Source: an uncultured Methanoregulaceae archaeon (GTDB lineage: Archaea > Halobacteriota > Methanomicrobia > Methanomicrobiales > Methanospirillaceae). From it: a stretch of DNA of 64,000 bases. The notes beneath the pieces are model-generated. The model had not been told where the DNA came from. It saw nothing but the letters and a program-made list of their open reading frames with translations, and searched no databases. Position numbers and translations under genes: made by a program. Positions 3,004 to 38,924 of this stretch are shown here, piece by piece (within the stretch, counting starts at the first letter, position 1; every line of letters begins with the position of its first letter). The stretch is taken from positions 2,112,001 through 2,176,000 of the forward strand of contig CAVTTL010000001.1 in assembly GCA_963737635.1 (NCBI GenBank), read 5' to 3'.

Positions 3004-4041
3004 TCACCATGCGGGGTTATTACTGACACCGTGTAATTTCCGGAACAGCCGCACCCGTGCCCGGGTTGCATTCGCGGGTTCCGGCACCGACTCATTGCTC
3101 CGCCTGCCACCTACAGCCTCGATGATAGCATTGATGGCCGCGGAGTGGGACGGCCCGTACCCGCCTTCCAGAATAAAGGCGGGAACGAGGTCAGTTGCAT
3201 CCAGCAGCATGGCAGTGAGCGTACCGTAGTCTTCCGGCTGCAGTCCCATAACACTGAGCGGATCGTCTGAAAGCATATCCTGCCCGGCTGATACCATCAG
3301 AAGGTCTGGATGCACCCGTTCGATCACCGGGAGGAAGAGATCGGAGAAAACATGCGCGACGTCCCCGATGGTGCTCCCGGAAAGCAGTGGGGCATTGACC
3401 GTGTACCCTGCGCTGGCACCGACACCGGTCACGGTGGCCGCCCCGGATCGGGGGAACAGGCCTTCCGCATGGACAGAGCAGTACAGCACCCGGTCGCTTT
3501 TTTTGAAGGTCTCTTCGGTCCCGTTCCCGTGATGCAGGTCCCAGTCGACAATCGCAATGCGATTCACGGAACCGAGTGCCTGTGCCGCAGCGACCGCAAC
3601 ATTATTGATCAGACAAAACCCCATCGCCCACCCGGGCAGGGCATGATGCCCCGGAGGCCGGACAAGCGCAAAACAACTCTCCCCTTCCCGCGCTCGTTCC
3701 ACCGCCATACATGCCGCGCCTGCTGCATAGGTGGCGACCCCATACGACCACGGAGTGACGTACGTATCCGCATCGATAAACCACGGTGAAGGCGGGTCCC
3801 TCGCGATCTCTGTATCCACAGCGACGGGGTGGGGGCTCAGGCCGCGCAGCCATGCGAGGTAGCCGGGAAGGTGGACGCGCACCAGATCTTCTTCTTGTGC
3901 AGCCACAGGATCGAGAACAGGGATGCCAGCCGGTAGTCCTGCGACAACCGCACGAAGGCGGTCAGCATTTTCGGGATGGCCCGGGCAGTCATGAAGCCCA
4001 AAGACTGGCCCGGTAATGACTGAGCATTTCGTAATGCACAA
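3004..4041 (-). CDS. Histone deacetylase family amidohydrolase
   Basis: HPENADRL, RPPGHHA, GFC..NN, DWDLHHGNGT, SAGQD...DPL and LEGGY motifs. Confidence 0.92.
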   Translation of the reverse strand: MCITKCSVITGPVFGLHDCPGHPENADRLRAVVAGLPAGIPVLDPVAAQEEDLVRVHLPGYLAWLRGLSPHPVAVDTEIARDPPSPWFIDADTYVTPWSYGVATYAAGAACMAVERAREGESCFALVRPPGHHALPGWAMGFCLINNVAVAAAQALGSVNRIAIVDWDLHHGNGTEETFKKSDRVLYCSVHAEGLFPRSGAATVTGVGASAGYTVNAPLLSGSTIGDVAHVFSDLFLPVIERVHPDLLMVSAGQDMLSDDPLSVMGLQPEDYGTLTAMLLDATDLVPAFILEGGYGPSHSAAINAIIEAVGGRRSNESVPEPANATRARVRLFRKLHGVSNNPAW

Positions 4042-7796: not shown

Positions 7797-9422
7797 TCAG
7801 GAGAACCCGGCCGAGAGACCGTCCCGGATATCCTGCTTCTTCTCCGCGTTGAGCCGGGAAAGATATTCTTCGAATTTGTAAATCCGGGTGCTGACCGGGA
7901 AAGGGATCGTGAGCGTGCTGATGATCGCCTCGCCCCGGTCAAGCGTCTGGATCTCCACTTCCATCTGGGACAGGTCCTGTTTTGCGCTCCCCATCACGAT
8001 ATCGCGATCGCCGCGGTCGCCAAGGCCCATGATGACAAAGGTGTTGATCTGGGCGAGCACTTTGGGGTCGACGTTTTTGGGTTGCTGGGTGATGACGCAG
8101 AGGCCGACACCAAACTTGCGGCCCTCCATGGCGCATTCACGGAAGACCTGGGTCGACGAGCCCCCGCTTGCAAGCACCCTTTGAGCCTCGTCGATGGCGA
8201 TCAGGATCTGTTTCTGCTCGGGCTCGGTATCCTCGACACCGAACTTCTCCGCGGTCTCCCGGTGATCCCGGAGGATGCGCCGGGTGATCATCGAGAGGAT
8301 GAACAGTTCGCTTCGTTCGCTCATCCGGGGAATATCGATGAGAACGACCTTGTGATCGTGCAGAGCGTTAAGGATCTCCTGGATGGCGGATCCTTTGGTG
8401 CGGAAGAACCGTTCGTTACCGTTGACGATAATCCGGATTTTCCGCTGGATGGACCCGAGCGTTGACGGGTGGAACGCCCTGAGCCGGTCTGCGATCTCCG
8501 GGTAGATCCCCCGGTAACTGCCGTCCTTGACCCGGTCCGGCAGGCTTTCAATATCCTGCTCGGCGAGGAAGAAGGCGATAGTCTTGCTGCCGGCAAACTC
8601 TTCCAGGGTCTCGACGACTTCCCATTGGGCAGGCGATAATTCGTAGAGAAGACCCAGATCGGCCATCCGGAAATCATCGTACTCGAGCCAGAGCTGGTGT
8701 GCGCCGTACTTTTTCTGGTTGTTCCTGTCGATACTGAAGATGGCTAACCCATCTTTTCCTGACGAGTAATGTGGCAGTCCTTTGCTTGTCTCGCCGGTAC
8801 TGGATTTTCCTCCCCGGACATATTCACCGTGGGGATCGACGATGAGAAGGCCGAACTGCCTGATCTTCATGCAGGACGCACAAAACACCCGCATGAAGTT
8901 GCTTTTTCCCATTCCTGTGGTGGCAAAAACGCCCATATGCTGGGGGAGAACAGCGCTTGGGATCTTGACCGGCACCCCTTTGAGATCTGCTTGGCCGGTC
9001 CGGATGACGCCGACCTCGATATCACCCATCAGCTTGGCCAGAAAGCCAAAGTCTTCGGCGGCCGGAATGCTGACCCGGGAGAATTTCACCGGGACCGTCC
9101 GGGGTTTCCGGAATATGTTTGTCTCATCGATAAACCCGAGCGGGACCGCTTCGACCCCGATAAAGACATCCTCGCCAAGCCCGTAGAACTGTTCGCTGTA
9201 CGGTCTCGTGTCCCAGTTCTGGTCGGCAAAATTGCTCTCGTGGAGGAGATCGGTGACCTTGGCAAAGAACGTGTACTTCTTCTTATCGTCTTCGATCTTG
9301 ATGATGTCCCCGACAAAGATGCCTGCGTCGTGGGGGACGATGAAACGGTATGCGAGAACGCTTTTACCGATGAGCCGGAATTTGGTCTTGTCTTTGTTAT
9401 CAATATCGTTCAAATTCATCAT
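7797..9422 (-). CDS. herA: HerA-type DNA translocase/helicase ATPase
   Basis: N-terminal HAS-barrel-like region, Walker A ATTGMGKS, DPHGEY, Walker B IAIDEAQ, EGRKFGVGL..ITQQP; last gene of the mre11-rad50-nurA operon. Confidence 0.92.
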   Translation of the reverse strand: MMNLNDIDNKDKTKFRLIGKSVLAYRFIVPHDAGIFVGDIIKIEDDKKKYTFFAKVTDLLHESNFADQNWDTRPYSEQFYGLGEDVFIGVEAVPLGFIDETNIFRKPRTVPVKFSRVSIPAAEDFGFLAKLMGDIEVGVIRTGQADLKGVPVKIPSAVLPQHMGVFATTGMGKSNFMRVFCASCMKIRQFGLLIVDPHGEYVRGGKSSTGETSKGLPHYSSGKDGLAIFSIDRNNQKKYGAHQLWLEYDDFRMADLGLLYELSPAQWEVVETLEEFAGSKTIAFFLAEQDIESLPDRVKDGSYRGIYPEIADRLRAFHPSTLGSIQRKIRIIVNGNERFFRTKGSAIQEILNALHDHKVVLIDIPRMSERSELFILSMITRRILRDHRETAEKFGVEDTEPEQKQILIAIDEAQRVLASGGSSTQVFRECAMEGRKFGVGLCVITQQPKNVDPKVLAQINTFVIMGLGDRGDRDIVMGSAKQDLSQMEVEIQTLDRGEAIISTLTIPFPVSTRIYKFEEYLSRLNAEKKQDIRDGLSAGFS

Positions 9423-10425
9423 GGAGGTCACCAAAGAGCATATCAAACATTTCTTTGTTCATTCCCCGTACGGAAAAGCCTTTCATGAGGTCCTGCCGGA
9501 TGTGTTCGACCAGCGGTTCGTCAATCACGACGGTACGGTGGGCGTCCAGCAACGGATAGGGATACCCCGGGACCCGCCCATCGTCGGCGCAGGAGGCAAT
9601 GGCACGCATGATCGTCTCGACCGTCTGTAAATCGGTACCGGCAGGCACTTCCAGTTTGAAAGGGACGTTTTTGGCGGGGTGGAAGGAGGCCACGTAGAGG
9701 TCTCCCAGCCGGTCCGGGTTGTCACTGGTAGTAAGGAGCCCGTCAGGGATCTTTACCCACCACGGGCCGGTTTTGCCATACTTCTGCGCGAGTCCGGCCA
9801 TTGCGGGAAGAAGCGGATGCACCCCTCCCCACTTGGCATTGGTCCGTTTTGCGATGCCGGCAAGGAGTATCCCCCGGCTTTGGGCCGTGTGGATAATTTC
9901 CTTCAGGACAGGATCATGGTTCGCATTCGTGACCCGCAATATCCCGTCAAGGAGAAGGAGCGATCCCGCCGGGAGTTCCCGGGCCTGGGAAAGGGCCACC
10001 CCGTATTCAAGAGTGTCACGGAGAGCCTCAGATACCCGTTTGGTATCGTTGTTTTTCAGGACGGTGTCGGGAGATCTGCCAAAACACTCCTGCATAAGGA
10101 GAGGGAAATCCGGATTTACCTTGTCCGGGCCGACAGTGACAACCCGTAAGGGGGTGATCGCCCGGGAGAGACGTTCACCCCCGGAAAACGTGGTCTGGAC
10201 CGCACGGATCGCAACAAGGGCAAAACTTCCCGATTCTGCAATGGTCGCGTTGCTCCCGTCAATGGCAGAGACAATGCCCCGGTATTCCCCGGTGATGGGG
10301 TGGAAGTCCTGTGCGGCGATCTTACTCTCCTCGGCAAATTCCCCGACCAGATCGCCACCGACCTGCCGGTAAATCTGGTCGAGCACATGGGTGACGGACG
10401 CTTCGTAGGCAGGGTCGGTCGGCAT
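9400..10425 (-). CDS. nurA: NurA 5'-3' nuclease
   Basis: AIDGS, LLLDG, GIAKR and GYPYPLLDAH..V motifs; operon context. Confidence 0.92.
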   Translation of the reverse strand: MPTDPAYEASVTHVLDQIYRQVGGDLVGEFAEESKIAAQDFHPITGEYRGIVSAIDGSNATIAESGSFALVAIRAVQTTFSGGERLSRAITPLRVVTVGPDKVNPDFPLLMQECFGRSPDTVLKNNDTKRVSEALRDTLEYGVALSQARELPAGSLLLLDGILRVTNANHDPVLKEIIHTAQSRGILLAGIAKRTNAKWGGVHPLLPAMAGLAQKYGKTGPWWVKIPDGLLTTSDNPDRLGDLYVASFHPAKNVPFKLEVPAGTDLQTVETIMRAIASCADDGRVPGYPYPLLDAHRTVVIDEPLVEHIRQDLMKGFSVRGMNKEMFDMLFGDLHDEFERY

Positions 10426-12864
10426 TATTCCACCACCTTGACCCGGCTTGCCAGATCGCTGCCCATCTCGACCACGAGCGTCGTTTCGAACTCGCCCTGC
10501 ATCTCCGGGATATGAGAGATGAGGAGGATCTGCGGGAACCGGGACTCCTGGGTTCTGAGCGCGGTGAGGAGATTGTTTCTCCGCTCTTCGTCCTGGCTCC
10601 CGAAGATCTCGTCGAAGATGAGCAGGGTGCTCTCGTGGACGTTGTGGAGCTCGGCAAGGTACCGGGAGAGGGCGATCCTGAGGGCGACTGCGATGTCGTC
10701 CTGTTCGCCGCCGCTGAACCGGTCGATGGCATAGTCATCATCCACATCACGGACGAGGAGGTTGAAGTCTTCGTCAAGGAGCACCTGCTCGTACCGGCCA
10801 CCGGTGATCTCGCCGACGATGCGGCTGACCTCGCCCTCGATCCGGCTCCGGACAACCTGCATAAGATAGATGACGTACTGGGCGATGATGAACCGGGTCA
10901 GTTTCAGGAGATCGATCTCTTCTGAGGCGGCTGTGATCCGTGTTTCGAGCTCCGCGGTCTTTGCCCGCTCCTTTTTGATCGTTGCGATCTTTTCTTCTGC
11001 GTGCCGCACCTGTTCTGCAGCCCGGGCAAGACCGGTGTCTGTCTGCCGCTGGGCTGTCGTGATCGTGGTGAGTTCGGCGTCCAGTGCGGTCCCTGTGGCC
11101 GGATCGAAGGGGCTCGCGGCAATCGCTGCTTCTGCCTCTACCTGTGCAGTTGCGTTCTCCGTCATCCGCACGGTTACGGCCGCAAGCTGTTTCTGCACTT
11201 CGCCGGCCTGTGCCAGCTGCCGGGCAAGCTCGTTGTACCGTACCTGTACCTTTTCGAGTCCCGCGACCGCCTTTTCCACTGCGGCGAATGCTGCCGGATC
11301 GAAGTGTAAGGCGGCTATTCTTTCGGCAAGTTCCCGGCCGGCTGCCTCCTTCTCCTGCAGGGTTTTGAGGAGATCCGCAAGATCCTTATCGATGCTCTCG
11401 CGCTGCCTCTCCGATTCGATGCAGCTCCGGAGAGCGGCCAGTTTGGGGGCAATGCCGTCGAGCGTGGCCTTCTCTTTGGTGAGTTTCTCCTGAGCGGCGA
11501 GGATGGTGACCGCCTCATCCTGGATGGCTTCAAGCTGCGAAGCAAACTCTTTTTCAATCGCCGGGTAATGCGCCCCGAGTTTCTGCCGACAGAGGGGGCA
11601 GGTGCCCTCCGGCCCGGCGGCTTCGAGAGCCTTCTGGTCAGCAAGGAGTTTTTCCCGGTCTTTTTCGAGGCGCTCCTGCCGTGCAGCATACGTCCCGATC
11701 GAGCGGTTGACCTCCTGGATTTTGGCAGCAGCGAGGGTGTCGAGGTTGGCATCCGGAACCGCACCGACGATCTTTAGTGCAGCCCGGATCTCTGCCCGGA
11801 GTGTTCCTGCTTTTTCTGCGTCTTTGTCGAACGTGGCGACCTGTTCCCGGTGCCTGGCGATCCGTTTGGTAAGGTCCGCATGCTCACGGCTCGCAAACTG
11901 CTGCTCGGCAGCGAGCCGGTCGGCATGTGCCTTCTGCTCTCTCATGCATTCGAGCTGTTTCTTCTTCTCCGGGTATGCTGCCACTTCCCCTTCGAGTTTA
12001 TGGAACTCCTGTTCCTGTGCGGAAAGGGTAGAAAGCCGGTGTTTGAGCTCGTCCTGTTGCTTCCTGAGACCGGCCAGCTCCCGGACAAGGGCGTTCTTCT
12101 TCTCGGTGAGCCGGGCATGCTCGACCTTGTGTGCGGTGAAGTCCCGGATCGCGTTCTCGATCCCGGCTTTTTTCTCTGCATAGGTTGACCGTGCCGCTTC
12201 GAGCGTTGCGATCCCTTTTTTTGTCTCCGCGATCGCGGTCTGGAGCCGGCTCGAGTTCCTCCGGGTCCTGTCGCTCCTGGAGACCCACGAGTTCTCCTTC
12301 CAGCAGCCGGAGATCGCATTCTGCGACATCGACCCGATCCTTGAGGCACTTCTGGCTCTCGGTGCTGAGGTAATCGATGCCGAGCGCTTTTAAGAACCAC
12401 TCTTTTCTTTTCCCCGGGGTGGTCTCTAAGAGTGTCAAAAGGTCTTTCTGGCCGGCGTAGATGGTGTTTTTGAAATCGACCGGGCCCATGCCAAGCGTCC
12501 GGCGCACCTCGGTCTCGACCGGCCCGATACCTTTTGCCCGGAGATGGCCGTCTTTGTAGAACTCGGCATCGTGCTGGACGGCCTTTCCTTTTTTGAACGT
12601 CCTGACGACTGCATACTTCTCCCCGCCCACGGAGAAGTCGAGCCTGACTTCGCACCGGTCTTTGGGTGAGGCAAACGAGGAGACGATGTGGTCGGGTGCA
12701 ATGCCGGTTGCCTGCACACCGTAGAGGGCAAAGAAGATGGCCTGGACGATGCTCGACTTGCCGGTGCCGTTGTTCCCGAGGATACCGGTGATACCGTCCG
12801 AGAACTCGATGGTCTCGTGCCGGAACCGTTTGAAGTTCTTGAGGACGAGCCGGTCAATGATCAT
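10425..12864 (-). CDS. rad50: Rad50 SMC-like ATPase, split by a single-base frameshift near 12252
   Basis: N-half: Walker A GNNGTGKSS and Q-loop; C-half: coiled coil, zinc hook CPLC, signature FSGGE, Walker B LLIFDE. Frames join at ...DPEEL / RLQTAIAE. Confidence 0.9.
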
Positions 12865-14002
12865 CAGGGGCCTCCCGGTGCTGGTCCATGACCTCGGCAA
12901 GCACGGTTCTACCGGTCCGGGCTACGAACTCCTTTTGCTTTGCGCCGAGCTGCTGTTTGTCCACGAACGTCCCGAACTCGGTGAGGTAATCGATCGCCCG
13001 GACATCCTGCTGGAGTGCCACCGGTGTGTCTTCTCCGGCGGTAACGACCCGGATCTTGAGGTCTAAGAGCTGTTCTTTGATGGGGGCGAGGGCACGCAGG
13101 TCGATGCCTCTCCCATGCTCCCGGGAGATGCCGTCCAGGGTGATCTGCACGAGGGAGAACGGTTCGGGGCACTTTTTCTGTACCCGCTGGATGATTTCTT
13201 CTGTTATTTCAGCTACGTGGCGGTCGGCGCAGGCGATAGTGCCGCAGTCGTACATAGAGGTCCGGGGCAGGTCAAGGTGGTCGACGGTGCGTTGTGCGGG
13301 GTCGACGACGAGGCCGCCCTTGGTGTCCCGGATCTCGCCGTACGTGAGGTATTCGGTGGAGCCGGAGTACCACGCGTTCTCCGCGATCTGTGACTGGTTG
13401 TGGTAGTGGCCAAGCGCGATGTAATCGAAGTCGGCCGAGAGGATGGTGTTGTCGAGCTCGTGCTCAGCAACGGTTGCGAGGCGCTTGTCCTTGATTGCCG
13501 TTGCAAGGCCATGGGTGACAAGCACGTTGTTCCGGCCTTTCATGAGTTCGACCTGATCGTAGGCAGTACGGTAGTCTTCGGGCCGGAGCATGTTCGGGAT
13601 CAGGTGGAAGATCGTGTCACCGATCTCCACTTTTTCATATCTGAAGGAATATGCAGCGTGAATTTCTGCGGGGTGGTAGGCGAGGACGGCGAGCGGGGAG
13701 GTGGTGTACCGGGTCTTGACCATGCTGTGGTTGCCGGTGACGATCACGAGGGGAATGCCTGCCTCGCCGAGTCGTGTGAGCGCATCGAGGACGGTGGTGT
13801 AGGCCTTGGTCTTAGGCTTGACGGTATCGAAAAGGTCGCCCGCATGGACAAGCACGTCCGGTTTTTCCCGGATGATGTGGTCGATCGCAGCAAGGAAGTT
13901 GTCGTAGATCTGCTTCTCGCGCAGGTTCATCCCCGAGTCCGGGTCGAGGCGGGAAAATGCGGAGAGGCCGAGATGCGTGTCTGCGATATGGACGAGCTTC
14001 AT
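12854..14002 (-). CDS. mre11: Mre11/SbcD DNA repair nuclease
   Basis: Metallophosphoesterase motifs ADTHLG, AGDLFD, GNH, THG, ALGHYH and YSGS. Confidence 0.95.
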   Translation of the reverse strand: MKLVHIADTHLGLSAFSRLDPDSGMNLREKQIYDNFLAAIDHIIREKPDVLVHAGDLFDTVKPKTKAYTTVLDALTRLGEAGIPLVIVTGNHSMVKTRYTTSPLAVLAYHPAEIHAAYSFRYEKVEIGDTIFHLIPNMLRPEDYRTAYDQVELMKGRNNVLVTHGLATAIKDKRLATVAEHELDNTILSADFDYIALGHYHNQSQIAENAWYSGSTEYLTYGEIRDTKGGLVVDPAQRTVDHLDLPRTSMYDCGTIACADRHVAEITEEIIQRVQKKCPEPFSLVQITLDGISREHGRGIDLRALAPIKEQLLDLKIRVVTAGEDTPVALQQDVRAIDYLTEFGTFVDKQQLGAKQKEFVARTGRTVLAEVMDQHREAPDDH

Positions 14003-14078
14003 TCTCTTAGGTTTTTAGTTGGGGTGTGCAGGCATATAAGGGGAAGGGGGGGACGGTGAAAATAAGAAACTGCCCCCT

Positions 14079-14897
14079 TCACTTCCCCTTACCGATCAAC
14101 CGGACATTCACATCTTCGGTAAGCAGGGTCATCTGATGGATGGCAATCGCGTTGAGTTTTACCAAGCGCTCGGGTTGCAAAAGGTTGTCGCTGATGAAAT
14201 GGGCGTTGAGATTTTCAAGGTTTGAGAGGCAGACAAGCTGCGAAATGTCTGCATAATCCCGGATATTGCCTTTTTTGTCCGGGTTTTTCTCCCGCCACTC
14301 TTTTGCACTTGTACCAAACAAGGCCATGTTGAGGACATCGGCTTCAGATGCATAAATCGCGTTGATCTGCGGTTTTGTTAGTTCTGGTGGGATCAGGTTT
14401 TCCCGTACTGCATCGGTGTGAATCCGATAATTGATCTTCGCGAGGTTGCGCCGGATATCCCAGCCAAGTTGCTTGCGTTCATCCTCCTTGAGGCGCTGGA
14501 ATTCCTTGATGAGATAGAGTTTAAATTCAACGGAGATCCATGAAGCGAATTCGAACGCAATATCCTTGTGGGCGAATGTGCCGCCATACCGTCCCGGTTT
14601 TGCCATGATGCCCCGGGCATGGGTCTTTTCAACCCACTGCCGTGCCGACAGGATAAAACTGTTGAGCCCGGCCTGTTTTCTAATCACATCGAATTCGATG
14701 TGATTAAAATCCGGATTGTTAAGCTGCTCCCATATACCAAGAAACTCTATGGTGTTGCGATTCCGAAGCCAGTTCTGGATGAGGTAATCCGTCCTATCGG
14801 GATCCTTGTACCGAGCAATATCCGTGATGCAGATATAATCTTCATCGTTCTGCACGAACACTCCAACTTCCCTGTCAAGGACATTCATTTTTGTCAT
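14079..14897 (-). CDS. KilA-N domain DNA-binding protein
   Basis: DYICITDIAR, NWLRNRNTIEFLGIWE and GRYGGTFAHKDIAFEFASWIS are typical of KilA-N proteins. Confidence 0.9.
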   Translation of the reverse strand: MTKMNVLDREVGVFVQNDEDYICITDIARYKDPDRTDYLIQNWLRNRNTIEFLGIWEQLNNPDFNHIEFDVIRKQAGLNSFILSARQWVEKTHARGIMAKPGRYGGTFAHKDIAFEFASWISVEFKLYLIKEFQRLKEDERKQLGWDIRRNLAKINYRIHTDAVRENLIPPELTKPQINAIYASEADVLNMALFGTSAKEWREKNPDKKGNIRDYADISQLVCLSNLENLNAHFISDNLLQPERLVKLNAIAIHQMTLLTEDVNVRLIGKGK

Positions 14898-15004
14898 TAT
14901 TTCCCGCCATTTTCACACGTGAAACGTTCACGAGTGAATCCTGTATGCCGGCATATTCGTAAGGGTTTGATAAAAAGGGCTTAGCGCGAGGTGTGAAACT
15001 GTTG

Positions 15005-15113
15005 GGGAAAACAGAGAGGCCGAGGTGCGTGTCTGCGATGTGGACGAGCTTCATTCTCTTAGGCGTTTGGTTGGGGTTTGCCGGCATATATGAGGGAGAG
15101 GAGGGCCGTGAAA
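15005..15113 (-). repeat. Partial duplicate of mre11 promoter and first ~16 codons
   Basis: Encodes MKLVHIADTHLGLSVF and retains the upstream sequence of real mre11 (14003-14062) to the GTGAAA boundary. Confidence 0.9.
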
Positions 15114-15135
15114 TGTACCGATCCGGGCCGAAACA

Positions 15136-16434
15136 TTACCGGCTCTCTTTTTCCGCGAGAAGCCACTTCCAGAGCGGGATGCAGGTGATCTCTCCTTTTG
15201 TTGCCTCGTAATCTTTTGTCAAGATGACAAGTTCGCGCACTGTGTCGGGAAATGTCCTGGCGAATTCTTTGAGGCCTTCATACTCCCGGGCAGGGATCTC
15301 GTCGCTGTAGCAGACATTGATCGCAGAGAGGGAATTGTCCTTAGCTTTGGTAACGAAGTCTACTTCACGGTCCCCTTTCCAGTAGTACGGGGCAAGGCCC
15401 GACCGCATCAGTTCGATGCAGACGAGGTTCTCGGCAAGTTTTCCTTCGTCTTCACTGAATTTGAAGGAGACCGCATTTCTCAGGCCGTTGTCGATGCAGT
15501 AGATCTTCCTGTTCTGCCGCGCCTGCACCTGGAGCGAATACGAAAATACCGGTACTTCGAACAGGATTTTTGCCATCCCGGCGAAGTGAATATAATCCCG
15601 GATTGTATCGACATCGATCCCGAGCGATTCCCTGAGACGGCGGTACCAGTACGGGGCGGCGATGTTGCTAAGAAGGTACTGGAGGAGCCCGGCAAGGGCT
15701 TTCTGGTTCCTTACCACGTTTGCCCGAACGATGTCCCGGTACACGATGCTGTCGTAATAGGCACGGAGATAGTCCTGCTTTGTATGTTCGTCCTGCTGGA
15801 GTACGACAATGGGAAAGCCGCCTTCGCGAAGGTACTGCCTCAACAGGACCGTGATCTCGTACTTCTGCGCTGCACGACCGGCGGCGTCACTGGGTGCGAC
15901 GATGGCGTGGAACTGGAGGTACTCGACGAAATCCAGCGGGAAAACGGGAACGGAAAGGTACCGGCCTGAAAGAAGAGTGGATACCTGAGAATCGAGGAGG
16001 TACGACGAGGATCCGGACAGGATGATCCGGTAGGTTTTTTTGTCGTACAGCGCCTTTATTTCCTGTTCCCAGCCTTCGATTGCCTGGATTTCGTCAAAGA
16101 CCAGGTATATCGTGCCTCTGGCTGCAACCTCCCTGCGGTACGCGTCGACGGCTTCGGACAGCGCGTTCGTATTGCCTGCGATGCCAGGCTCGTCGCAGTT
16201 GACAAAGAGGATGTTTTCTTTTGGTACCCGCTCTTTTTTCATGAGCATCCGGATGGTCTGGAAGAGAAGCGTGGTCTTTCCCGAACGACGGACGCCGCTC
16301 AGCACGACGATCTCGCCGGTTTTTACAAAACGGGCGATCGTTTTGAGATATTTCTGCCGCTCCCGACCGGTATCGAACGGCCGGCCGGTCCACCACGGGT
16401 TCTGGTCTGCGAGGATCTCGAAGAGTGTTGCCAC
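15136..16434 (-). CDS. AAA+ ATPase (AAA_14 + DUF4143 type)
   Basis: QNPWW, Walker A GVRRSGKT, FDEIQ, SGSS, LSGR, GGFP, KIYCIDNGL, EN, EVDF motifs. Confidence 0.9.
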   Translation of the reverse strand: MATLFEILADQNPWWTGRPFDTGRERQKYLKTIARFVKTGEIVVLSGVRRSGKTTLLFQTIRMLMKKERVPKENILFVNCDEPGIAGNTNALSEAVDAYRREVAARGTIYLVFDEIQAIEGWEQEIKALYDKKTYRIILSGSSSYLLDSQVSTLLSGRYLSVPVFPLDFVEYLQFHAIVAPSDAAGRAAQKYEITVLLRQYLREGGFPIVVLQQDEHTKQDYLRAYYDSIVYRDIVRANVVRNQKALAGLLQYLLSNIAAPYWYRRLRESLGIDVDTIRDYIHFAGMAKILFEVPVFSYSLQVQARQNRKIYCIDNGLRNAVSFKFSEDEGKLAENLVCIELMRSGLAPYYWKGDREVDFVTKAKDNSLSAINVCYSDEIPAREYEGLKEFARTFPDTVRELVILTKDYEATKGEITCIPLWKWLLAEKESR

Positions 16435-16446
16435 ACTATTGTGTAA

Positions 16447-16524
16447 GGTTATAACCCCTTATAAATGTTGGTTTGTGAGGGATTATAACCCGACACTTTT
16501 CTGGAAATATGAGGGGGTATAACC
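16447..16524. promoter_or_regulatory. Three GNNTATAACC boxes at exact 34-bp spacing upstream of the ATPase
   Basis: GGTTATAACC 16447, GATTATAACC 16481, GGGTATAACC 16515; the first is a perfect palindrome. Confidence 0.6.
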
Positions 16525-16545
16525 GGACACTATCAACTGTTTTTT

Positions 16546-16602
16546 GATGATCCGGTCGATCGCAGCGAGGAAGTTATCGTAGATCTGCTTCCTCGCGCAG
16601 GT
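16546..16602 (-). repeat. Internal mre11 5' fragment (codons ~28-46)
   Basis: Reads LRE(+1 base)KQIYDNFLAAIDRII versus LREKQIYDNFLAAIDHII in mre11; begins 1 bp after the serine hydrolase stop. Confidence 0.88.
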
Positions 16603-16603
16603 A

Positions 16604-18201
16604 TCAGGAGGAGATCCGGACAAAGGTCCCGTTTCTGCCCGGCATTTCGAACTGCGTGAACCAGACGCTGGTTGCTGTCCCGCTGTTTCCCACCGTGAAA
16701 TTCACTGCGGTGTCGGTTGAGGTATCGTTGAAGGTGTCCCCGTCATACGGGATAAGGAGGAACGGCGTGGTGGCATGGCCCGGGTACACGAGGAGCCCCG
16801 TTGCGTTCGAATCGATCCGTAAAGTACCGTAATAGTCCTGCGAATATGAACCGCTGTAGGCTGCAAGGGCCCGGGTGGGCTTTGCATCTGCCGGTGCAGG
16901 CGGGAGCTCTTGATACGGGCTTAAGACTGACGATCCCGGCTGCATTGCAGCGTTGATCTGATCCTCCGATACGCTGTACCAGTCCTTTTGGATCGCTCCC
17001 GTAAAGTACAGGTCATCCCATCCTTTCGTTATCGCATTTTTAAGGATGTACCCTCCGGGAAAGCCATTTGTCAGGACCACGATACTCATATTCTCTGCCG
17101 GGTAGAGCACAATATAGTTCGAGACTCCCTGTGTCCCGTCGCCGCCATGTTCAACCCGGACCCTCCCGTTTCCGGCGATAACCTCCCATCCGAGACCGTA
17201 TGCGGTAATACCGGCATTGTTCGATGTAATGATATTCTGGGCTCTGTGAGTCTCCATGAGTGCATCGGAACCGATCACGTGCTTCCCGTCAATGGCTCCG
17301 TTGTTGAGTTGAAGTCGGGCATAGCGGGCCATATCGTTGATGGTCGAGCTCACCCCACCGGCAGGACTGGTCACGTCCTCATTCATGAGGGGGGCTGCTT
17401 TCGGAGTCCCGTTTACCACGACATAGGTATCCGCATGGTTTCCTGATGTGGCAAAATCGGCAAACCGGGCGCTCGTGTTGTACATCCCGGCAGGGACAAA
17501 GACCCGTTCCGCAACAAGATCTTCCCACGGTTGTCCTGCTTTCATGGAAGCAGCCTCTGCCGCCACCGTGATGCCGATATCTGAATACGCGTAGGATGAG
17601 CGAAAGGCTCCCGTCAGCCCCAGGTACCGCAGCCTGCCGATGATCTCGGACCGGTTGTACCCGAATGTATACTGGAGATCTTGCCCTGCATATTCCGGAA
17701 GCCCGGTCCGGTGAGACAGCAGATCGCGGATGGTGACGTGGTCGGTTACCCAGGGGTCCGACAGCTGGAACCCAGGGTCCAGCGATACGACCGGTTCGTC
17801 CCACGACAGCTCGCCATCACCGACCATGGATGCGATCGAAGCTGAGGCAAAGGACTTCGAGACAGACTCGAGCTGGAATCGGGTGTCCGGCGTGATCGGT
17901 GCCCCGGTCGTGATGTTTCTCACTCCAAAGCACCGGAGGTAGACAACCGTATCGTTCTGCACGATGACAACTGCCATTCCCGGAACGCCGCTTTTGACAA
18001 AGTTCTGTTCCGCATAGGCATCGAACTGCGGTATGACGGCGCTGATAGTGGATGCACCGGGAGCCACGGCAGGCGTATTTGCATTCAGGCATGGTGCCGG
18101 CTGGGCCGCATGAGACGAGACACAGCCGGAGAAAAGAGAGTACCGGCCACAAGGAAAGCAGCAAGAAACAGGAATGCGTGTTGCCGGGAGCGGATTTTCA
18201 T
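16604..18201 (-). CDS. Secreted/lipoprotein serine hydrolase (beta-lactamase/AmpC fold, DUF3471-like C-terminus); frameshift in signal region near 18135
   Basis: SxxK (SVSK), LLSHRTGL, YSD and HGG motifs; upstream MKIRSRQHAFLFLAAFLVAG...FSGC signal/lipobox joins after one indel. Confidence 0.85.
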
Positions 18202-18249
18202 AAAAGGGACGTTGAAGTTCTTTTCAAAAAAACATTGCCTTTCGCGCTC

Positions 18250-18422
18250 GCGAGGAAGTTATAGTAGATCTGCTTCTCGCGCAGATTCATCCCCGTGTCC
18301 GGGTCGAGTCGGGAAAATGCGGAGAGGCCGAGATGGGTATCTGTGATGTGGACGAGCTTCATTCTCTTAGGTTTTTAGTTGGGGTATGCAGGCGTATAAG
18401 GGGGGAGGAGAGGACGGTGAAA
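18250..18422 (-). repeat. Partial duplicate of mre11 promoter and first ~38 codons
   Basis: MKLVHITDTHLGLSAFSRLDPDTGMNLREKQIYYNFLA plus a near-identical upstream region ending at GGACGGTGAAA. Confidence 0.93.
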
Positions 18423-18688
18423 CTCAAGAAAGGTTGTAGATTACTGACAACAGATGATTTCCTGTTGAGTGATTTTTTAATTCAAAATAGGTAGTAAGGA
18501 AGCATATTTCGTAATTCTTGAATAGGAGTTAATGAAGTGTCGTACGTCATGAAAAATAACGAGTTTTGAAGAGCCCAGACTGTGGAAAACAATTTGAATC
18601 CATGTAAAATTTTAAACTTTAGAGGTTGTAAAATGAATTCAGATTTCGATAACTATAAATTTTTAACAAATTATCAATTATATTAAGA

Positions 18689-20005
18689 ATGGGTCAATTA
18701 AAATTACTCCACATAAGTGATATTCATTACTCCTCTAATGAAATTTATCAGACACCATCAGACTTAGAGGAGCTTAGTGAATATGTCTGGTCTGAATTAT
18801 CAATGGAAGAAAAGGTAAATTTGTCACAAATTTTAATCCGAAAAATTAAAAAGGCACTATATTTCCACATCGAGAAAGAAAAATTTCATTCAATCATAAT
18901 TTCAGGAGATTTATGCAACAAAGGATCATTAGAGGAATATAGCAATTGTCTAGATTATCTCACACTTCAATTTCAGAATTTCAGCAAAAAAATACGAAAA
19001 ATGGATGTGAAAATTGCTGCAGGAAATCATGATTTGATTTCTAATCTTCCATATAGTTCTAAAAATTTAAAAAAACGTTTTCTCCCTTTTTGTAATTTAC
19101 ACCGAAAAAAAGGTTTTCAAACATATGCCACCGATTCAATTAAATGTACTATTATCGAAGAAAATGCATGTAAAGTTTTATTAATAAATGTAAATTCATG
19201 TCTTGAATTTCGAAATCTAAAATTACTTACACCTGTTCAACAAAAGGCAATCAAATTAATGATATCTCAGTTAGGGGATCGAGCAGACTTAAATAAATTA
19301 CTCAATATTCCTTATATTAGTCCTCAATTAATAGATTCAATATCTAAAATAATTCAAAGTCGTGAGGATTGCTTTCCAATAATATTCACACATCACAACT
19401 TTCTTCGAATAGGCGGACCATTCAATCCAGACAGGGAGTTTGATGGAATAATAAATGAGGCGGAAATTTGTCAAAAACTAGAATCGCTTAATAGGCCGAT
19501 TTTGATCTTCCATGGGCATATCCACAATAATCGAGAACAAGAGCTCAATAGAGGAAAATCCAAACTAATTTTGTCTTCTGCGCCTCTCTTATTCCCACAC
19601 ATTAGTTTTTATAACGATGAAAAGATTGGGTTCAACATTGTGAACATTATTTTTGCAAATAATTTAAATCGAACGCCCCTCTGGTGTGAAATTGAGAATC
19701 ATCAAATCGAAGGATGCAACATTAACATTCTTCCGAAAAATATGATCAGGTTTTATGATTCCGCGGATGCGATTCAATTTTTATCGGAAAATGAAAAAAA
19801 TCTATTAATGTTTATAAATCAAATTGGAGCTGATGAACACTTAGATGTGATTTATCAAAAAATAAAAGGTAAAGGCATAGTGCATATTGATTTTACATTT
19901 GACGAGTTGATGGCCTCAATAAATCTCCTATTTGGTTTAAATCTGATAAAATTTAGAGAGAACAAAGTAAATCCAAATTCAAGTGTTGTTAGAGGGGTGT
20001 ATTAA
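18689..20005 (+). CDS. Calcineurin-like metallophosphoesterase (putative defence effector)
   Basis: HISDIH, SGDL, GNHD, HH and HGHIH motifs; very AT-rich DNA. Confidence 0.85.
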   Translation: MGQLKLLHISDIHYSSNEIYQTPSDLEELSEYVWSELSMEEKVNLSQILIRKIKKALYFHIEKEKFHSIIISGDLCNKGSLEEYSNCLDYLTLQFQNFSKKIRKMDVKIAAGNHDLISNLPYSSKNLKKRFLPFCNLHRKKGFQTYATDSIKCTIIEENACKVLLINVNSCLEFRNLKLLTPVQQKAIKLMISQLGDRADLNKLLNIPYISPQLIDSISKIIQSREDCFPIIFTHHNFLRIGGPFNPDREFDGIINEAEICQKLESLNRPILIFHGHIHNNREQELNRGKSKLILSSAPLLFPHISFYNDEKIGFNIVNIIFANNLNRTPLWCEIENHQIEGCNINILPKNMIRFYDSADAIQFLSENEKNLLMFINQIGADEHLDVIYQKIKGKGIVHIDFTFDELMASINLLFGLNLIKFRENKVNPNSSVVRGVY

Positions 20006-22011
20006 TGTCGAAGAAAGATGATCGAAATCCATTTGCAACGGATCGATGGGAAGATGAGCGGGATCATCTTTTTTGGCTACCTTCTTCGTTTGAAAAATTG
20101 GAAAGAAACAGATGTGTTTACTTAATTGGCACAAGAGGTGCTGGAAAAACTACGATTTTAAAAGCATTGGATTGGAACGAACGCTTGACAAATAAATCCC
20201 TACAAAATCAAATACGTGAAAAAAACGGGGAGGATCTTTTTTCGAAACATTTCGTTGGAATTTATATTGACGTTGGTAAGAAATATATCTTAAAGAATTT
20301 TTATTCGTGGTTAAAAAAAGAACATAGTTCTATTGATACAATCGTAGTAGAAAGAGGACGCCTATTTTCACTCTATATAGAATATCTTGCAATATTCAAT
20401 TTGATTGAGGCCATCGAAGGTTTAAGAAATGAAAAAATTATAAAATACTTACCCTCTCAAGAACAGCGCGTTATTAATACAATTTTGAAAGTTCGTCCTG
20501 AGATAAAGAATTTTATTAGAACAAATGGCGAATACTATATTTTAGAAGACATTAGACTCGCAATAAAGAAGATATACGAAAAAATTTGGAACGATTCGCA
20601 AATTACGGATAGTGGAACCTTAAGTAATGAATTACCTAATCTTCAAATTGGATTGGTTTTGGGGGAATTATCAAAACCGTTACTTGGACTTTGTAATACC
20701 AAAACAGAAAAATATATTGTGAAAGTATGTATAGACTCCGTTGAAAGTCTCGATCTCGAACTTATAAAATCATTGAACACACTTATTGCGACTCATGAAG
20801 AACATACAACATTTGTTTTCGCATCAACTCATGAGTTTATAGACACGGAAAGTACATTTGTTCCAGATCATCCACTGACTCAAGATGATCGAGATATAAT
20901 AACTTTAGAAAAATTTTATGATGAGTTTCTAACGTTTGTTGAAGGAGTCACAAGATTACGTTTCGAAAAAGTTTTAGAGCATTCTTCTTTCGATGTAGAA
21001 ATAAAAAAAATATTGGGGGATTATTCTCTTAATCGTTTATTAGATTATGAATTAAAGAAAACAATTTCTGTTGAATATCAAGATTTCGCGAAATCTGTAC
21101 AAAATGATTTTTCTAAAAAATGGAATCGTTTACTAAAAAGTGTTGGGAAAGAAGCTCCAAAAGATCCCCCGTATATCGAAGCATATCTAACTAAAAAATT
21201 GAATATTAATCTAGATAAATATTTCAACAAAATGAATGAGTTCTCAATTCTCCATTCTAGTCAATACAGAAAAAAACAAAGAAGTGCTATGTTATGCCTC
21301 TGTTATGATTCTGAATATCCAAGCAATTTATCCGTACCTTATGCAGGATATCGGATGGTACTCAATATGAGTGATTCAAACATTCGCGATTTTATTCGTC
21401 AGATGAGGAATATTTATGATGTATCAATTCACAAACGAGAAAAGTTTTTAGAGAATACTGTGCCGCTTGAGATTCAGAAAAAAGGAATACGAACAGCGAG
21501 TGAGGTAAAGTATTCCGAAATCGAAAGAGGTTCTTCATATGCAATTGAAATTAGTAATATGGTTCGAGTTTTAGGTAATATTACCCATATCCTCCAAACT
21601 ACTTCTCAAGACGCATTAAGAATCACGGAAAGAGGTACTTACATTATAGATTATCTTAAACTTCCAACCCAAGAAAAAAGAGAGAATTTGCACAAAATAA
21701 TTTTCACAGCAAGCGTAAATAAATATTATATAAATGTTGTTGATGTAATTTTAAATCCAAATGATCGATCTATAGTCTCGCAAAAAATACGTTTACATAG
21801 ACTTTTCGCTCCTCTCTTTGATTTCTCATATATTTCAACAAATACAGGTCGAGAATATGAAATGGAAATTAACCCAAATGATCTGTTGGAAATATGTGAC
21901 ACTCCGCTTAAAGAAGATTTTAGAGAAATTGCTGACAGAATGTCAAAACGAATTACTCCAGGAGTAAATGGGGGGCAAAAAACTTTGTTAAATTGGCATA
22001 CTAATGACTGA
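20005..22011 (+). CDS. P-loop ATPase (ORC/Cdc6-like or STAND-like), putative defence component
   Basis: N-terminal NPF, Walker A GTRGAGKT, degenerate Walker B VCIDSVE, SDSNIRDFI and RLHRLFAP; coupled to the upstream gene (TAATG). Confidence 0.75.
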   Translation: MSKKDDRNPFATDRWEDERDHLFWLPSSFEKLERNRCVYLIGTRGAGKTTILKALDWNERLTNKSLQNQIREKNGEDLFSKHFVGIYIDVGKKYILKNFYSWLKKEHSSIDTIVVERGRLFSLYIEYLAIFNLIEAIEGLRNEKIIKYLPSQEQRVINTILKVRPEIKNFIRTNGEYYILEDIRLAIKKIYEKIWNDSQITDSGTLSNELPNLQIGLVLGELSKPLLGLCNTKTEKYIVKVCIDSVESLDLELIKSLNTLIATHEEHTTFVFASTHEFIDTESTFVPDHPLTQDDRDIITLEKFYDEFLTFVEGVTRLRFEKVLEHSSFDVEIKKILGDYSLNRLLDYELKKTISVEYQDFAKSVQNDFSKKWNRLLKSVGKEAPKDPPYIEAYLTKKLNINLDKYFNKMNEFSILHSSQYRKKQRSAMLCLCYDSEYPSNLSVPYAGYRMVLNMSDSNIRDFIRQMRNIYDVSIHKREKFLENTVPLEIQKKGIRTASEVKYSEIERGSSYAIEISNMVRVLGNITHILQTTSQDALRITERGTYIIDYLKLPTQEKRENLHKIIFTASVNKYYINVVDVILNPNDRSIVSQKIRLHRLFAPLFDFSYISTNTGREYEMEINPNDLLEICDTPLKEDFREIADRMSKRITPGVNGGQKTLLNWHTND

Positions 22012-23043
22012 ATTCTTTGAAGGTTATCTTTACGGTAGATCGAAATCTTTTGATAAGGGGATATCGATAGATGGATTTTTTGATTTGTTTATTTTTACGG
22101 CAGGATGGGAAGAACGCTGTACAAAAATTATCAGTCATAACTCCGATGAATTTTCATTTGATGAAGCTATAGTCTTATCGTTCATAAACTCAGGGAGAAA
22201 GGGCTGGAATATTAATTATTATAAGAAGATTCTGAGATTTATAAAAATCAATAAAAAAAAGAGGCATTCCCTAATTGTATTAGACGCATTAGTACCGAAT
22301 TTTGAGGGTCTAAAAGATATTTCTAAATTATTCGAAATAATTAAAACGAAACAGCAACAATTGAAAAGACCAATTGAACTTGGATTTGACATCTCCAGTT
22401 GTCCAAGAGTTGTTTTTTTACAAATATTGCATTACTGCATAGAGAATGATTTAACTAAAAGTATCTCTTTTTTTTATGCAGAAGGAATTTACGATTTCGA
22501 TGTTGCGCGTGATGAAGTATTTGTAGCCGGTGATTGGGATACAATTGCTATTCCAGGGTATGGTGGAAAAAATATCAATCTCCAAAAAAAAGATTATTTT
22601 ATTTTATCTTTTGGATTTGAACAAAAAGGATATCTTGGATGGGTCGAAGAATGTGATACATTAGCTAAAGTGGGGGTTCTTTTTCCGCACCCACCGTATA
22701 TCCCCAAATATGATAAGATCGGGAAAGCGAGATTAAAGGAGTTTAATAAAAGACTTGGATTAGACGACGAAAATGAAAAATTTTCGTTCGAGACAGCTAC
22801 ACTGGTGATGCCATCGAAGCTTGGAAAAAATTTGATTCGCTATTAAAGTCTAAGAAAGATTATAATGTCACATTTCTTCCGTATGGTCCGAAACCTCACT
22901 CGCTTGCAATGGGTCTCCGTTGTCTATTAAATGAAAATTTTGTTTTGATCTACCGAATATCTAGTAAAGGATATCATGAAATTGATGTCAAACCTTTAGG
23001 AAAACTTTGGCAATATGAAATTAGAAATTTAGCACTTTTTTAG
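22004..23043 (+). CDS. Third component of the AT-rich module (alpha/beta fold, unknown function); frameshift near 22800
   Basis: GWEER, FDISSCPR, FYAEG and SFGFE; continues in another frame as TGDAIEAW...PYGPKPHSLAMGL...RNLALF* ending at 23043. Confidence 0.7.
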
Positions 23044-27774: not shown

Positions 27775-27868
27775 AACAGTGTTTTCCGTTACAGGTGGGG
27801 AGGTCTGGACAATAAATCGGGAATATCTGATGGTTGATTTTTGAAAATACATATATCTGGCGATTCTG

Positions 27869-27947
27869 GGCTCTGTAACGTCTGCGGATGGCACCATATT
27901 TTCTTCGACGAAGGCTTAATGCAACCACCCGAAGACTTGACGGAGCC
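27869..27947 (+). repeat. Palindromic element A1 (79 bp, IS6-like ends)
   Basis: GGCTCTGTAACGTCTGCGG...TTCTTCGACGAAGGCTTAATGCAAC...GAAGACTTGACGGAGCC. Confidence 0.9.
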
Positions 27948-28097
27948 TTTGCCGATTCCATCTGTCGAGCCTGTGACAAGTATAACCGGCTCTGTCGTGA
28001 AGGTGCATATTCGGGTGCAACAAAAAGAAATTATCGATGCGGCAAAGTGTCGCTGACGATACCATCACTCGCATCCCCTAATGATTATGATCTATGA

Positions 28098-31361: not shown

Positions 31362-31479
31362 TGAAATACCTACATCGATCTCAACCACTCATCCTTAAAA
31401 ACAAATCTCATACGAGAGGACACGGGGGTAGTCAATCCCCGGCCCGGTAGCGGAGTTCTTCTCTTTTCATGTCCTGCAG

Positions 31480-31558
31480 GGCTCTGTAAAATCTGCGGGT
31501 GGTGACCTATTTTCCTCGACGATGGCTTAATGCAACTACCCGTAGACTTGACAGAGTC
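31480..31558 (+). repeat. Palindromic element A2
   Basis: GGCTCTGTAAAATCTGCGGGTGGT...ACTACCCGTAGACTTGACAGAGTC; ~24-bp arms. Confidence 0.9.
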
Positions 31559-35264: not shown

Positions 35265-35274
35265 AGGAAAGTGT

Positions 35275-35352
35275 GGTTCTGTAAAGTCTGCGGGGGACGA
35301 CATCTTTCCTCGACGAAATCTTAATACAACCGCCCGAAGACTTGACCGAGCC
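35275..35352 (+). repeat. Palindromic element A4
   Basis: GGTTCTGTAAAGTCTGCGG...CCTCGACGAAATCTTAATACAAC...GACTTGACCGAGCC; 10 bp after a stop. Confidence 0.88.
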
Positions 35353-35635: not shown

Positions 35636-35839
35636 AGTTCGTGTCATCTCCTTGGTGGTGCACCCAAAAGGGCTCACCAGCCACGCAGTATAATCCAATG
35701 TTGAAATACATCCTTTGTGGCAAAAAACAAAATGTGTGACAAAAAACAAAAAATACCTGCATTGCACCGCTTCATGGGAGGTTCTGATGCGACTTCGTTT
35801 AAATGCCATTCCTGCTAATATACCAGCATTCTTTTCTGA

Positions 35840-35919
35840 GGCTCTGTAAAGTCCGCGGTGGACGACCTTTTTTCCTCGACGAAAGTCTTGATGCAACCTC
35901 CCGAAGACGTGACAGAACC
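35840..35919 (+). repeat. Palindromic element A5
   Basis: GGCTCTGTAAAGTCCGCGG...CCTCGACGAAAGTCTTGATGCAAC...GACGTGACAGAACC; 16 bp from the MFS stop. Confidence 0.88.
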
Positions 35920-38840: not shown

Positions 38841-38844
38841 GCCG

Positions 38845-38924
38845 GGCTCTGTAAAATCCGCGGGTGGCGACATATTCTCCTCGACGAAGGTTTAATGCAA
38901 CCACCCCGAAGACTTGACAGAGCC
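38845..38924 (+). repeat. Palindromic element A6
   Basis: GGCTCTGTAAAATCCGCGGGTGG...GAAGACTTGACAGAGCC; 4 bp after the hxlR stop. Confidence 0.9.

Follow-up and report, generated by a model that had tools for sequence, protein, structure and literature searches.

An integrase-free-looking array of partial mre11 5′ ends and cargo genes at the start of a methanogen repair operon

Genomic islands and proviruses are inserted by integrases at the ends of tRNA or protein-coding genes, where elements can accrete in tandem, as modelled in Streptococcus for cis-mobilizable elements and integrative and conjugative elements (CIME/ICE accretion). We analysed a 64,000-nt stretch of DNA, hereafter the window, from an uncultured Methanoregulaceae archaeon, a soil methanogen (GenBank assembly GCA_963737635.1, contig CAVTTL010000001.1, positions 2,112,001 to 2,176,000), in which partial copies of the 5′ end of the DNA repair gene mre11 alternate with cargo genes upstream of the intact gene. 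We refer to the partial copies as scars, and to the 2.46-Mb genome containing the window (C1:2112001-2176000) as G000. As in CIME/ICE accretion, an insert seems to bring a copy of the target end so that the gene stays intact, the native end is left behind as a distal partial direct repeat, and arrays of repeats and cargo result. Unlike in that model, no integrase was detected at the mre11 arrays and there is no fixed crossover point or att core. Moreover, the target is a 5′ end with its promoter and not a 3′ end, and the cargo consists of one to a few genes of cellular or defence type without the backbone of a mobile element.

Campbell-type single crossover and homology-facilitated illegitimate recombination are known from non-replicating plasmids and from natural transformation. 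Campbell-type integration requires no dedicated recombinase, and its end points are set by the extent of homology in the incoming DNA. Two of its characteristics are found at mre11: the homologous segment is present twice, once at each side of the insert (in the window and in seven relatives), and the copies are hybrids, of recipient type in the distal copy and of donor type at the start of the proximal one (in the related genomes G090, G108 and G114). Whereas Campbell-type events are mainly experimental, those at mre11 would occur naturally and repeatedly, at a single locus across a methanogen genus.

The array also resembles integrons, because mostly single-gene, co-oriented cassettes lie beside a fixed, promoter-bearing site. 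It differs from them in that it has no intI or attC, its boundaries are copies of the start of a host gene, and its KilA-N and ATPase genes have their own promoters. Positions 11000-22000 contain only one weak inverted repeat, located inside the operon. Bacterial defence-island hotspots that lack an integrase harbour variable defence genes between core genes, and their exchange is thought to occur via flanking homology. The cargo of the mre11 arrays is similar in that it includes PDC-S22, PDC-S01, PIN, nucleotidyltransferase and PD-(D/E)XK genes, with a SIR2-TPR gene nearby. In contrast to those hotspots, however, the flanking gene mre11 is partly duplicated at each event, which leaves a record of scars, and its promoter is swapped. 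A literature search on mre11-linked integration arrays in archaea found no such array, a statement that is confined to that search.

Architecture of the array and check of its assembly

The first-pass annotation of the window had described three co-oriented partial mre11 copies upstream of the intact gene, alternating with KilA-N, AAA ATPase and serine hydrolase genes and followed by an AT-rich module. Similarity mapping placed the copies (scars A, B and C) at the positions it had given, all on the minus strand like the operon, and Pfam searches and GC content confirmed the order of the cargo. Scar coordinates are also given in mre11 numbering, with the ATG at +1. The intact gene (12854..14002, 382 aa, Pfam Metallophos, E 4.5e-14) has orthologues across the order with 52-75% amino acid identity, and is preceded by the resident promoter block (14003..14061) comprising a TTTCAC box, a C-rich spacer, the sequence TTATAT and a 5′ leader, a block that all aligned members of the genus conserve. 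Next comes the KilA-N gene with its own promoter (14079..14998; open reading frame (ORF) 14079-14897; TTTCAC box at 14998; Pfam KilA-N, E 4e-23), which is followed by scar A (15005..15113). Scar A corresponds to -58..+52 of mre11, that is, the promoter and the first ~17-20 codons, and is 84.7% identical to it over 111 nt (E about 1e-28).

Beyond scar A lies a gene for an ATPase with the Pfam domains AAA_14 and DUF4143 (15136..16545), consisting of the ORF (15136-16434) and its own promoter region (16435-16545). Scar B (16546..16602) corresponds to +77..+132, lacks a promoter, and is 91.2% identical to mre11 over 57 nt (E about 2e-15). It is directly adjoined by the stop codon of a gene for a beta-lactamase-family serine hydrolase (16604..18249; ORF 16604-18067; Pfam Beta-lactamase, E 1e-56, and DUF3471). 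Scar C (18250..18422) spans -59..+113, the promoter and the first 37 codons; its match extends over 18250-18431 (-66..+113), with 90.1% identity over 182 nt (E about 1e-64), and its TATA box is changed to TTATAC. These cargo genes are on the minus strand, and the AT-rich three-gene module that adjoins scar C (18689..22846) is on the plus strand. According to Pfam, this module encodes a Metallophos protein, an ORC/Cdc6-like ATPase (PF24389) and a CARF-like protein, and its GC content is 27-36% versus about 58% elsewhere.

The intact gene and the three scars are the only four matches to the mre11 5′ segment across the 2.46-Mb genome; when this genome was compared with itself, 111 local diverged direct repeats turned up, most of them tandem paralogues or domain repeats. 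As had been noted in the first-pass annotation, the intact gene, scar A and scar C share the same terminal GTGAAA (at 14061, 15113 and 18422), where similarity is lost; the stop codons of the KilA-N and ATPase genes are separated from the next such boundary by 17 and 22 nt, respectively, and a domain search found no integrase among 10 ORFs of the window. In mre11 numbering, 38 nt (+76..+113) are common to scars C and B, which places this stretch on both sides of the beta-lactamase-family gene.

The array structure is not a misassembly, an outcome that the first-pass annotation had considered. Contigs from four runs of four metagenome studies bridge every junction of the array with at least 99% likeness. 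The bridging contigs cover 13996-14999 (X1 record 2), 14263-16673 (X2 record 6), 15026-18385 (X1 record 3), 16236-16876 (X7 record 21) and 18356-18699 (X7 record 25); the public contigs end within repeats, as expected of short-read contigs. Misjoined reads as the source of the repeats are furthermore hard to reconcile with copies that are diverged (85-91% identical) and each cut at different points, and with the presence of the same architecture in other species. What speaks for an artefact are apparent single-base indel errors in G000: rad50 lies in two frames, and all four runs have one additional A after 18131. These runs also have a G rather than a C at 15647. With the additional A, the hydrolase gene reads in frame from the ATG at 18201 through a signal-peptide-like N-terminus (open frame of 539 aa). 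Hence, this ATG is the probable true start of the beta-lactamase-family gene, and the window probably holds a one-base assembly error at 18131. Given the bridged junctions, we regard the chance that the repeats themselves are artefactual as negligible.

Recurrence, divergence and mosaicism in Methanoregula

Using mre11 positions -63..+203 as query, we searched the DNA of 108 genomes of the genus. The segment was matched in 55 of them, of which 15 had at least two matches, and ten of the 55 (G000, G009, G053, G055, G060, G076, G090, G100, G108 and G114) contain extra mre11 5′ fragments on the same contig within 30 kb. Fragments were then mapped in 26 loci from 21 other genomes, which were picked partly because the genus search had flagged them. 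The fragments span -67..+193 and -59..+252 in G009, -63..+95 in G090, +71..+122 in G100, -64..+282 in G055, -47..+302 in G076, +43..+202 in G108 and +1..+287 in G114; there are two in G060, and those of G053 are 29 kb away from its mre11. Their 3′ ends are scattered, being found near +55, +95, +113, +132, +193, +202, +300, +345 and +400.

Each block of cargo is enclosed by two mre11 5′ copies, both in the window and in G009, G055, G060, G076, G090, G108 and G114, and its content varies: the ATPase gene together with a PIN gene (G009) or alone (G060 and G055), a gene for an LVIVD-repeat protein (G076), a nucleotidyltransferase (NTP-transferase) gene (G090), a PIN gene and a split PD-(D/E)XK gene (G114), or genes for a P-type ATPase and an FMN reductase (G108). 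The variable cargo and multiple fragments that the first-pass annotation had anticipated in relatives are therefore present in the genus, and a single ancient duplication with invariant cargo was not seen. Its proposal that the mre11 start is a recurring integration anchor holds in so far as this start is a recurrent entry point (10 of 55 genomes, with varied cargo), but dedicated site-specific integration, which it also implied, gained no support. In a more distant Methanomicrobiales metagenome-assembled genome (MAG), an N-terminal mre11 fragment lies 12 kb upstream of its mre11 (loci L167 and L175), and mre11 remnants without an intact gene nearby occur in G008, G047 and G018.

Three side observations concern these loci. 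Among other genomes of the genus, a protein search found this mre11 in only 8 of 24 and a DNA search in 54 of 107; G008 and G047 have fragments only, and many Methanoregula species seem to do without the entire mre11-rad50 operon or to have replaced it. Scars can also create fusion frames: in G009 (L030, G009:C7, 5337-7352), the first ~64 codons of mre11 are joined to the ATPase gene from about codon 13, and in G108 (L071, 10073-10876) the FMN-reductase ORF can begin within the mre11 fragment. Finally, in two species (L067 of G060, about 3240-3340; L030 of G009, about 8640-8740) an insert of ~110 nt separates the mre11 fragment, at about +300, from the region upstream of the ATPase gene, and contains a 9-bp perfect inverted repeat of the TGAATACAA / TTGTATTCA type.

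Synonymous and nonsynonymous differences were counted between each of ten scars and the intact gene of the same genome, comparisons that are small (16-100 codons each). For the baseline of real genes against real genes, saturation of synonymous sites left no usable median. For seven of the ten scars, including all three in the window, the ratio of nonsynonymous to synonymous divergence (dN/dS) is low (0.02-0.15) at a proportion of synonymous differences (pS) of 0.14-0.44. The dN/dS values are 0.04, 0.14 and 0.10 for scars A, B and C, respectively, and 0.15, 0.08, 0.10 and 0.02 for the scars of G076, G114, G055 and G108; scar A, for instance, differs from the resident mre11 by five synonymous changes and one nonsynonymous change. 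Such near-synonymous-only divergence indicates that it mostly accrued while both copies were working genes, in different lineages. The substitution pattern shows these copies to be alleles, as far as so few codons can tell, and not products of decay in situ.

Comparisons between species gave the polarity of the events. The fragment of G090 is 95% identical to G054 and 94% to G109, whereas its identity to its own gene is 83%. From about +30 on, the intact G090 gene shares 92-96% identity with that of G109, but only 76% across -70..+30, and its promoter and at least 70 nt upstream resemble those of G020. Similarly, the fragment of G108 is 97.5% identical to G106, 95% to G104 and 93% to its own gene, and the gene bodies of G104 and G108 are 94% identical, against 53% for their promoters. 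In G114, the fragment and 3.2 kb upstream match the context of the intact gene of G005 (91.7%); for the promoter window of the G114 gene itself G005 is not among the best matches, though it is among those of the next 600 nt. By these identities, the native version is shown to be the distal scar, and the foreign promoter to be on the intact gene, in all three genomes. The first-pass annotation had supposed that each incoming piece carries a replacement 5′ end and leaves a scar; this agrees with G090, G108 and G114, but not every piece is fresh, as the ATPase cassette described below is inherited. In addition, fragment f2 of G060 lies in the context of the intact gene of G108 (92.8% over 1.6 kb).

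Mosaicism was assessed with 666 pairs formed by 37 intact mre11 sequences, taking +401..+1100 as the body. Bodies are at least 86% identical in 11 pairs, and in seven of these 11 the promoters are at most 70% identical. The reverse discordance was observed for G109 and G054 (promoters 100%, bodies 82%) and for G102 and G071a (95% and 79%). For G000, the best matches of mre11 are G054, G109 and G102 over -62..+330 and G116 and G100 for the body, with a switch at about +300, a signal of moderate strength; scar C is 93.8% identical to G116 versus 91.2% to its own gene. Within the window itself, these matches are thus only suggestive of a donor/recipient hybrid pattern. Naming the donor of the window scars by best match was tried and rejected, because a margin of 1-3 nt is not enough for it.

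A portion of the array is old. The ATPase cassettes of G000, G009, G060 and G055 align over their full length, including a shared promoter region, and the point where each cassette meets the mre11 fragment before it varies through nested deletions; the G009 fusion links mre11 position +193 with about codon 13 of the ATPase gene. The ATPase gene is also present in G005 and G101, and the scar of G100 has the same +132 junction, with the promoter and tail of the ATPase gene kept and its ORF gone. The identity between the ATPases follows species divergence. As judged from these alignments, the cassette and its +132 junction are shown to be old, inherited and eroded by deletions, and the cassette to be orthologous in at least six species. 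Other junctions are shared as well, by G108 and G053 at +202 and by fragments f3 of G009 and f2 of G060 near +300, and G009 holds the unit [promoter, mre11 5′ piece, ATPase upstream region] twice, from which it follows that deletions and inter-scar recombination reshape the arrays.

The GTGAAA boundary and the formation of the array

The loss of similarity at GTGAAA had been taken in the first-pass annotation as evidence of integration. This argument did not survive the comparison with other promoters. In all aligned species of the genus, single-copy ones included, upstream similarity ends at the same TTTTCAC, and pairwise upstream matches start at about -57 to -72, except between close genomes. 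A scan of G000 for TTTCAC, a C-rich spacer and TATA found five sites, which are the three mre11 copies, radA (Pfam Rad51, C1:462982) and a radical-SAM/HhH gene (C1:837287); in the window, the boxes are at 14061, 14998, 15113 and 18422. Both the KilA-N promoter of G000 and those of 10 of 11 orthologues carry the box. In radA promoters, ACTTTCAC is kept in 13 of 13 relatives, with TATA 22-23 nt downstream and nothing conserved farther upstream; radA thus has the same type of boundary, yet no duplications. Since similarity is lost at this point also in single-copy genomes, and since radA, the radical-SAM/HhH gene and the KilA-N gene have the same box, GTGAAA marks the distal edge of a functional promoter element. 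On this comparative evidence, the shared boundary is the edge of promoter conservation and no evidence of a recombination site.

We consider it probable that the conserved mre11 promoter and the first ~50-400 nt of the gene form the fixed edge of a hypervariable island, with integrase-free homologous recombination anchored there. From its annotated domains, this island appears rich in candidate defence genes. DNA of other lineages would enter through homologous recombination anchored in the conserved start of mre11, either as a circle carrying an mre11 promoter/5′ piece plus cargo that integrates by a single crossover, or as a linear fragment of an array from the donor, in which scar and gene start would be the two homology arms and would both pair with the single mre11 start of the recipient in a double crossover. 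The incoming DNA would give the working gene its promoter and first codons, and the resident 5′ end would be displaced upstream and decay as a scar. Repeated entry, deletions and inter-scar recombination would build and erode the array, and no dedicated recombinase would be involved. With either form of crossover, the expected outcome is a hybrid distal copy that keeps the native promoter and a proximal copy that has the donor promoter; this is what was observed.

Alternatively, a tyrosine or other recombinase, acting in trans or since lost, could have used a site in the mre11 promoter/5′ region, the array being composed of tandem-accreted element remnants as at tRNA genes. Direct repeats do flank each cargo segment, the target gene is restored by the incoming sequence, the foreign/native switch lies near the ATG in G090, G108 and G114, the beta-lactamase-family gene has the 38-nt overlap (+76..+113) around it, and the cargo sits tight against the next promoter copy (0-22 nt; 86 nt in G060). 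That overlap is the only core-like feature, however, and no fixed att core is seen: the 3′ ends of the repeats range from +55 to +400, and their common 5′ limit is explained by the limit of promoter conservation. Recombinase families are absent among 79 ORFs in or around 12 arrays or upstream regions (10 ORFs of the window plus 15 and 54 of relatives), and one DDE transposase lies in the 29-kb interval of G053. G000 has only two PF00589 genes (C1:1459787 and C1:273900), both at least 650 kb from the window, the nearer at about 650 kb. The mre11 segment gave 0 matches in viral contigs (searched with a +70..+107 pattern) and none in plasmids (blastn), metagenome contigs not having been scanned, and the cargo consists mostly of single cellular-type genes and not of element backbones. 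We therefore judge site-specific integration to be unlikely.

A purely intragenomic history would import no 5′ ends. Instead, the 5′ end of mre11 would have undergone one or a few tandem duplications long ago, and the copies would since have been inherited vertically and altered by unequal crossing-over, deletions and ordinary gene turnover between them. The orthologous ATPase cassette (G000, G009, G060, G055, G005 and G101) with its nested deletions, its +132 junction common to G000 and G100 and its divergence in step with that of the species speaks for this history. The same holds for the junctions common to other pairs of genomes, for the doubled unit of G009, and for the scars of G009 that have a low pS and a dN/dS of about 1. 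It does not predict that scars of G090, G108 and G114 are nearer to genes of other species than to their own while the promoters of the intact genes are foreign, nor that seven of ten scars diverge almost only synonymously (pS 0.14-0.44), unlike in neutral decay in situ, nor the promoter/body discordance in 7 of 11 close genome pairs. As the sole explanation, it is contradicted by the polarity and the dN/dS data, and we rate it as rather improbable. Integrase-free homologous recombination on the mre11 5′ end is the most likely mechanism, its route and the absence of a trans-acting recombinase being the parts that we infer.

Several observations weigh against this preferred mechanism or limit its reach. 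In the contigs at hand, no circular or excised intermediate was found; nor was there a donor-recipient pair near enough for its junctions to be read, and the route is therefore deduced. Only 38 nt of duplicated mre11 flank the beta-lactamase-family gene, a length on the short side for homologous recombination and reminiscent of an att core or a long target duplication. In all three polarity cases the switch between foreign and native sequence falls within about the first 60 nt, while the duplicated segments extend to +95, +202 and +345. Randomly placed crossovers would not predict such clustering near the ATG, which could point to a favoured site; together with the 38-nt flank it keeps a trans-acting recombinase in play. 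Two fragments of G009 (f3 and f2) and the coding part of the G090 scar have pS values of 0.03-0.09 and dN/dS ratios of 0.6-1.7; this looks like recent neutral decay, so intragenomic duplication contributes too, and a part of the array is inherited rather than newly inserted. The box is not universal either, since the promoter type of G109 and G054 has TTTTCC in place of TTTCAC. In G101, 16 kb separate the KilA-N gene from mre11 and no scar was detected. Lastly, most relatives are MAGs, and because the arrays of G009, G060, G005 and G119 stop at contig breaks, some architectures are incomplete.

Cargo, neighbouring genes and biological meaning

KilA-N orthologues with 76-87% amino acid identity occur in 38 of 107 other genomes of the genus. 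In the 11-12 contexts examined, homology is limited to the ORF, except for three closely related pairs and for the ATPase gene shared with G101, where KilA-N again adjoins it, 16 kb from mre11. Because its homology stops at the ends of the ORF, the KilA-N gene behaves as a single-gene unit. A similar C-terminal peptide had hinted at a possible KilA-N remnant upstream of the G020 and G090 promoters, but tblastn found no KilA-N there. PADLOC assigned the KilA-N protein to PDC-S22 (E 5.6e-132) and the ATPase to PDC-S01 (E 3e-110), both candidate families only, and also detected the CARF-like protein of the AT-rich module (E 3.7e-12). Relatives have PIN, NTP_transf_2, PD-(D/E)XK, SIR2-TPR, methylase and HD genes as defence-type genes; cargo that is not defence-like is present too (serine hydrolase, LVIVD protein, FMN reductase and P-type ATPase). 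The AT-rich module was found in only 2 of 108 genomes of the genus, the other being G008 (L176, G008:C5, 8151-12722; 27-33% amino acid identity), in which it likewise lies beyond two mre11 fragments. Its composition and distribution suggest that it is likely a foreign, candidate defence system exchanged at the hotspot.

We tentatively consider, as a possibility that we would not rate as likely, that the locus works as an integrase-free cassette system. A scar and the resident mre11 start would then serve as homology arms by which any intervening gene passes between species through ordinary homologous recombination, each transfer would provide the double-strand-break repair operon of the recipient with a new damage-type promoter, and the promoter-bearing scars left behind may put captured genes under TTTCAC-box control.

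Downstream of mre11 and also on the minus strand, the operon continues with rad50 (10425..12900; SMC_N, SbcC Walker B and zinc-hook matches), nurA (9400..10425; Pfam NurA, E 2e-9) and, as the last gene of mre11-rad50-nurA-herA, herA (7797..9446; Pfam DUF87/HerA central domain, E 1.8e-26). In the window, rad50 is split into two overlapping frames (10425-12329 and 11998-12900), whereas G020 has one ORF of 812 aa; the two frames may reflect an assembly indel error or a real frameshift. Farther away, an element of ~82 nt is present in six copies on the plus strand (27868-27950, 31476-31556, 35272-35352, 35837-35919, 38844-38927 and 44769-44848). Base pairing between its ends yields a long hairpin (-33 kcal/mol and z -4.5 in one copy); it matched no Rfam family and may be a structured RNA or else a miniature mobile element.

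According to Boubriak et al. 2008 (PMC2556686), the one relevant paper in a literature search for the 11-nt Halobacterium motif, TTTCACTTTCA is present in UV-induced promoters of Halobacterium, and the UV-response motif of Halobacterium radA1 is likewise a TTTCAC-containing box upstream of radA. Compared with that motif as given there, the box of G000 (ACTTTCAC at radA, TTTTCAC at mre11) differs in being located also before mre11, the radical-SAM/HhH gene and the KilA-N gene. A TTTCAC box ~20 nt upstream of TATA may mark a small DNA-damage-type regulon in Methanoregula. A palindrome, TTTCAC-NN-GTGAAA, upstream of the KilA-N gene was rejected as a candidate: it has one match, but at least one was obtained in 23 of 100 shuffles, which is not significant. 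In G012, a 34-nt stretch (G012:C97:1283-1316) is 100% identical to the G000 radA promoter from box to TATA and is separate from the radA promoter of G012 itself; it may be a copied promoter.

In conclusion, the observation of the first-pass annotation was confirmed and its interpretation partly supported: a real and recurrent scar array, integrase-free in appearance, is present at the 5′ end of a methanogen repair operon, the mechanism being deduced from comparisons. To our knowledge, the DNA-damage response of Methanomicrobiales is barely known, and a candidate TTTCAC-box regulon comprising radA, the mre11 operon, the radical-SAM/HhH gene and the KilA-N gene is a by-product of this analysis. 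In practical terms the gain is modest: one can predictably turn to this locus when searching Methanoregula for new defence-type genes, and it is a possible natural template for single-crossover insertion of markers. If the proposed mechanism is true, the promoter of an essential repair operon would have been swapped repeatedly between species, and the scars would be a dated trail from which the order of events can be read. Archaea would then be seen to assemble gene arrays at a core gene and pass them on, with the start of that gene as the handle and with no dedicated mobile-element machinery, which would be of interest for archaeal genome dynamics.

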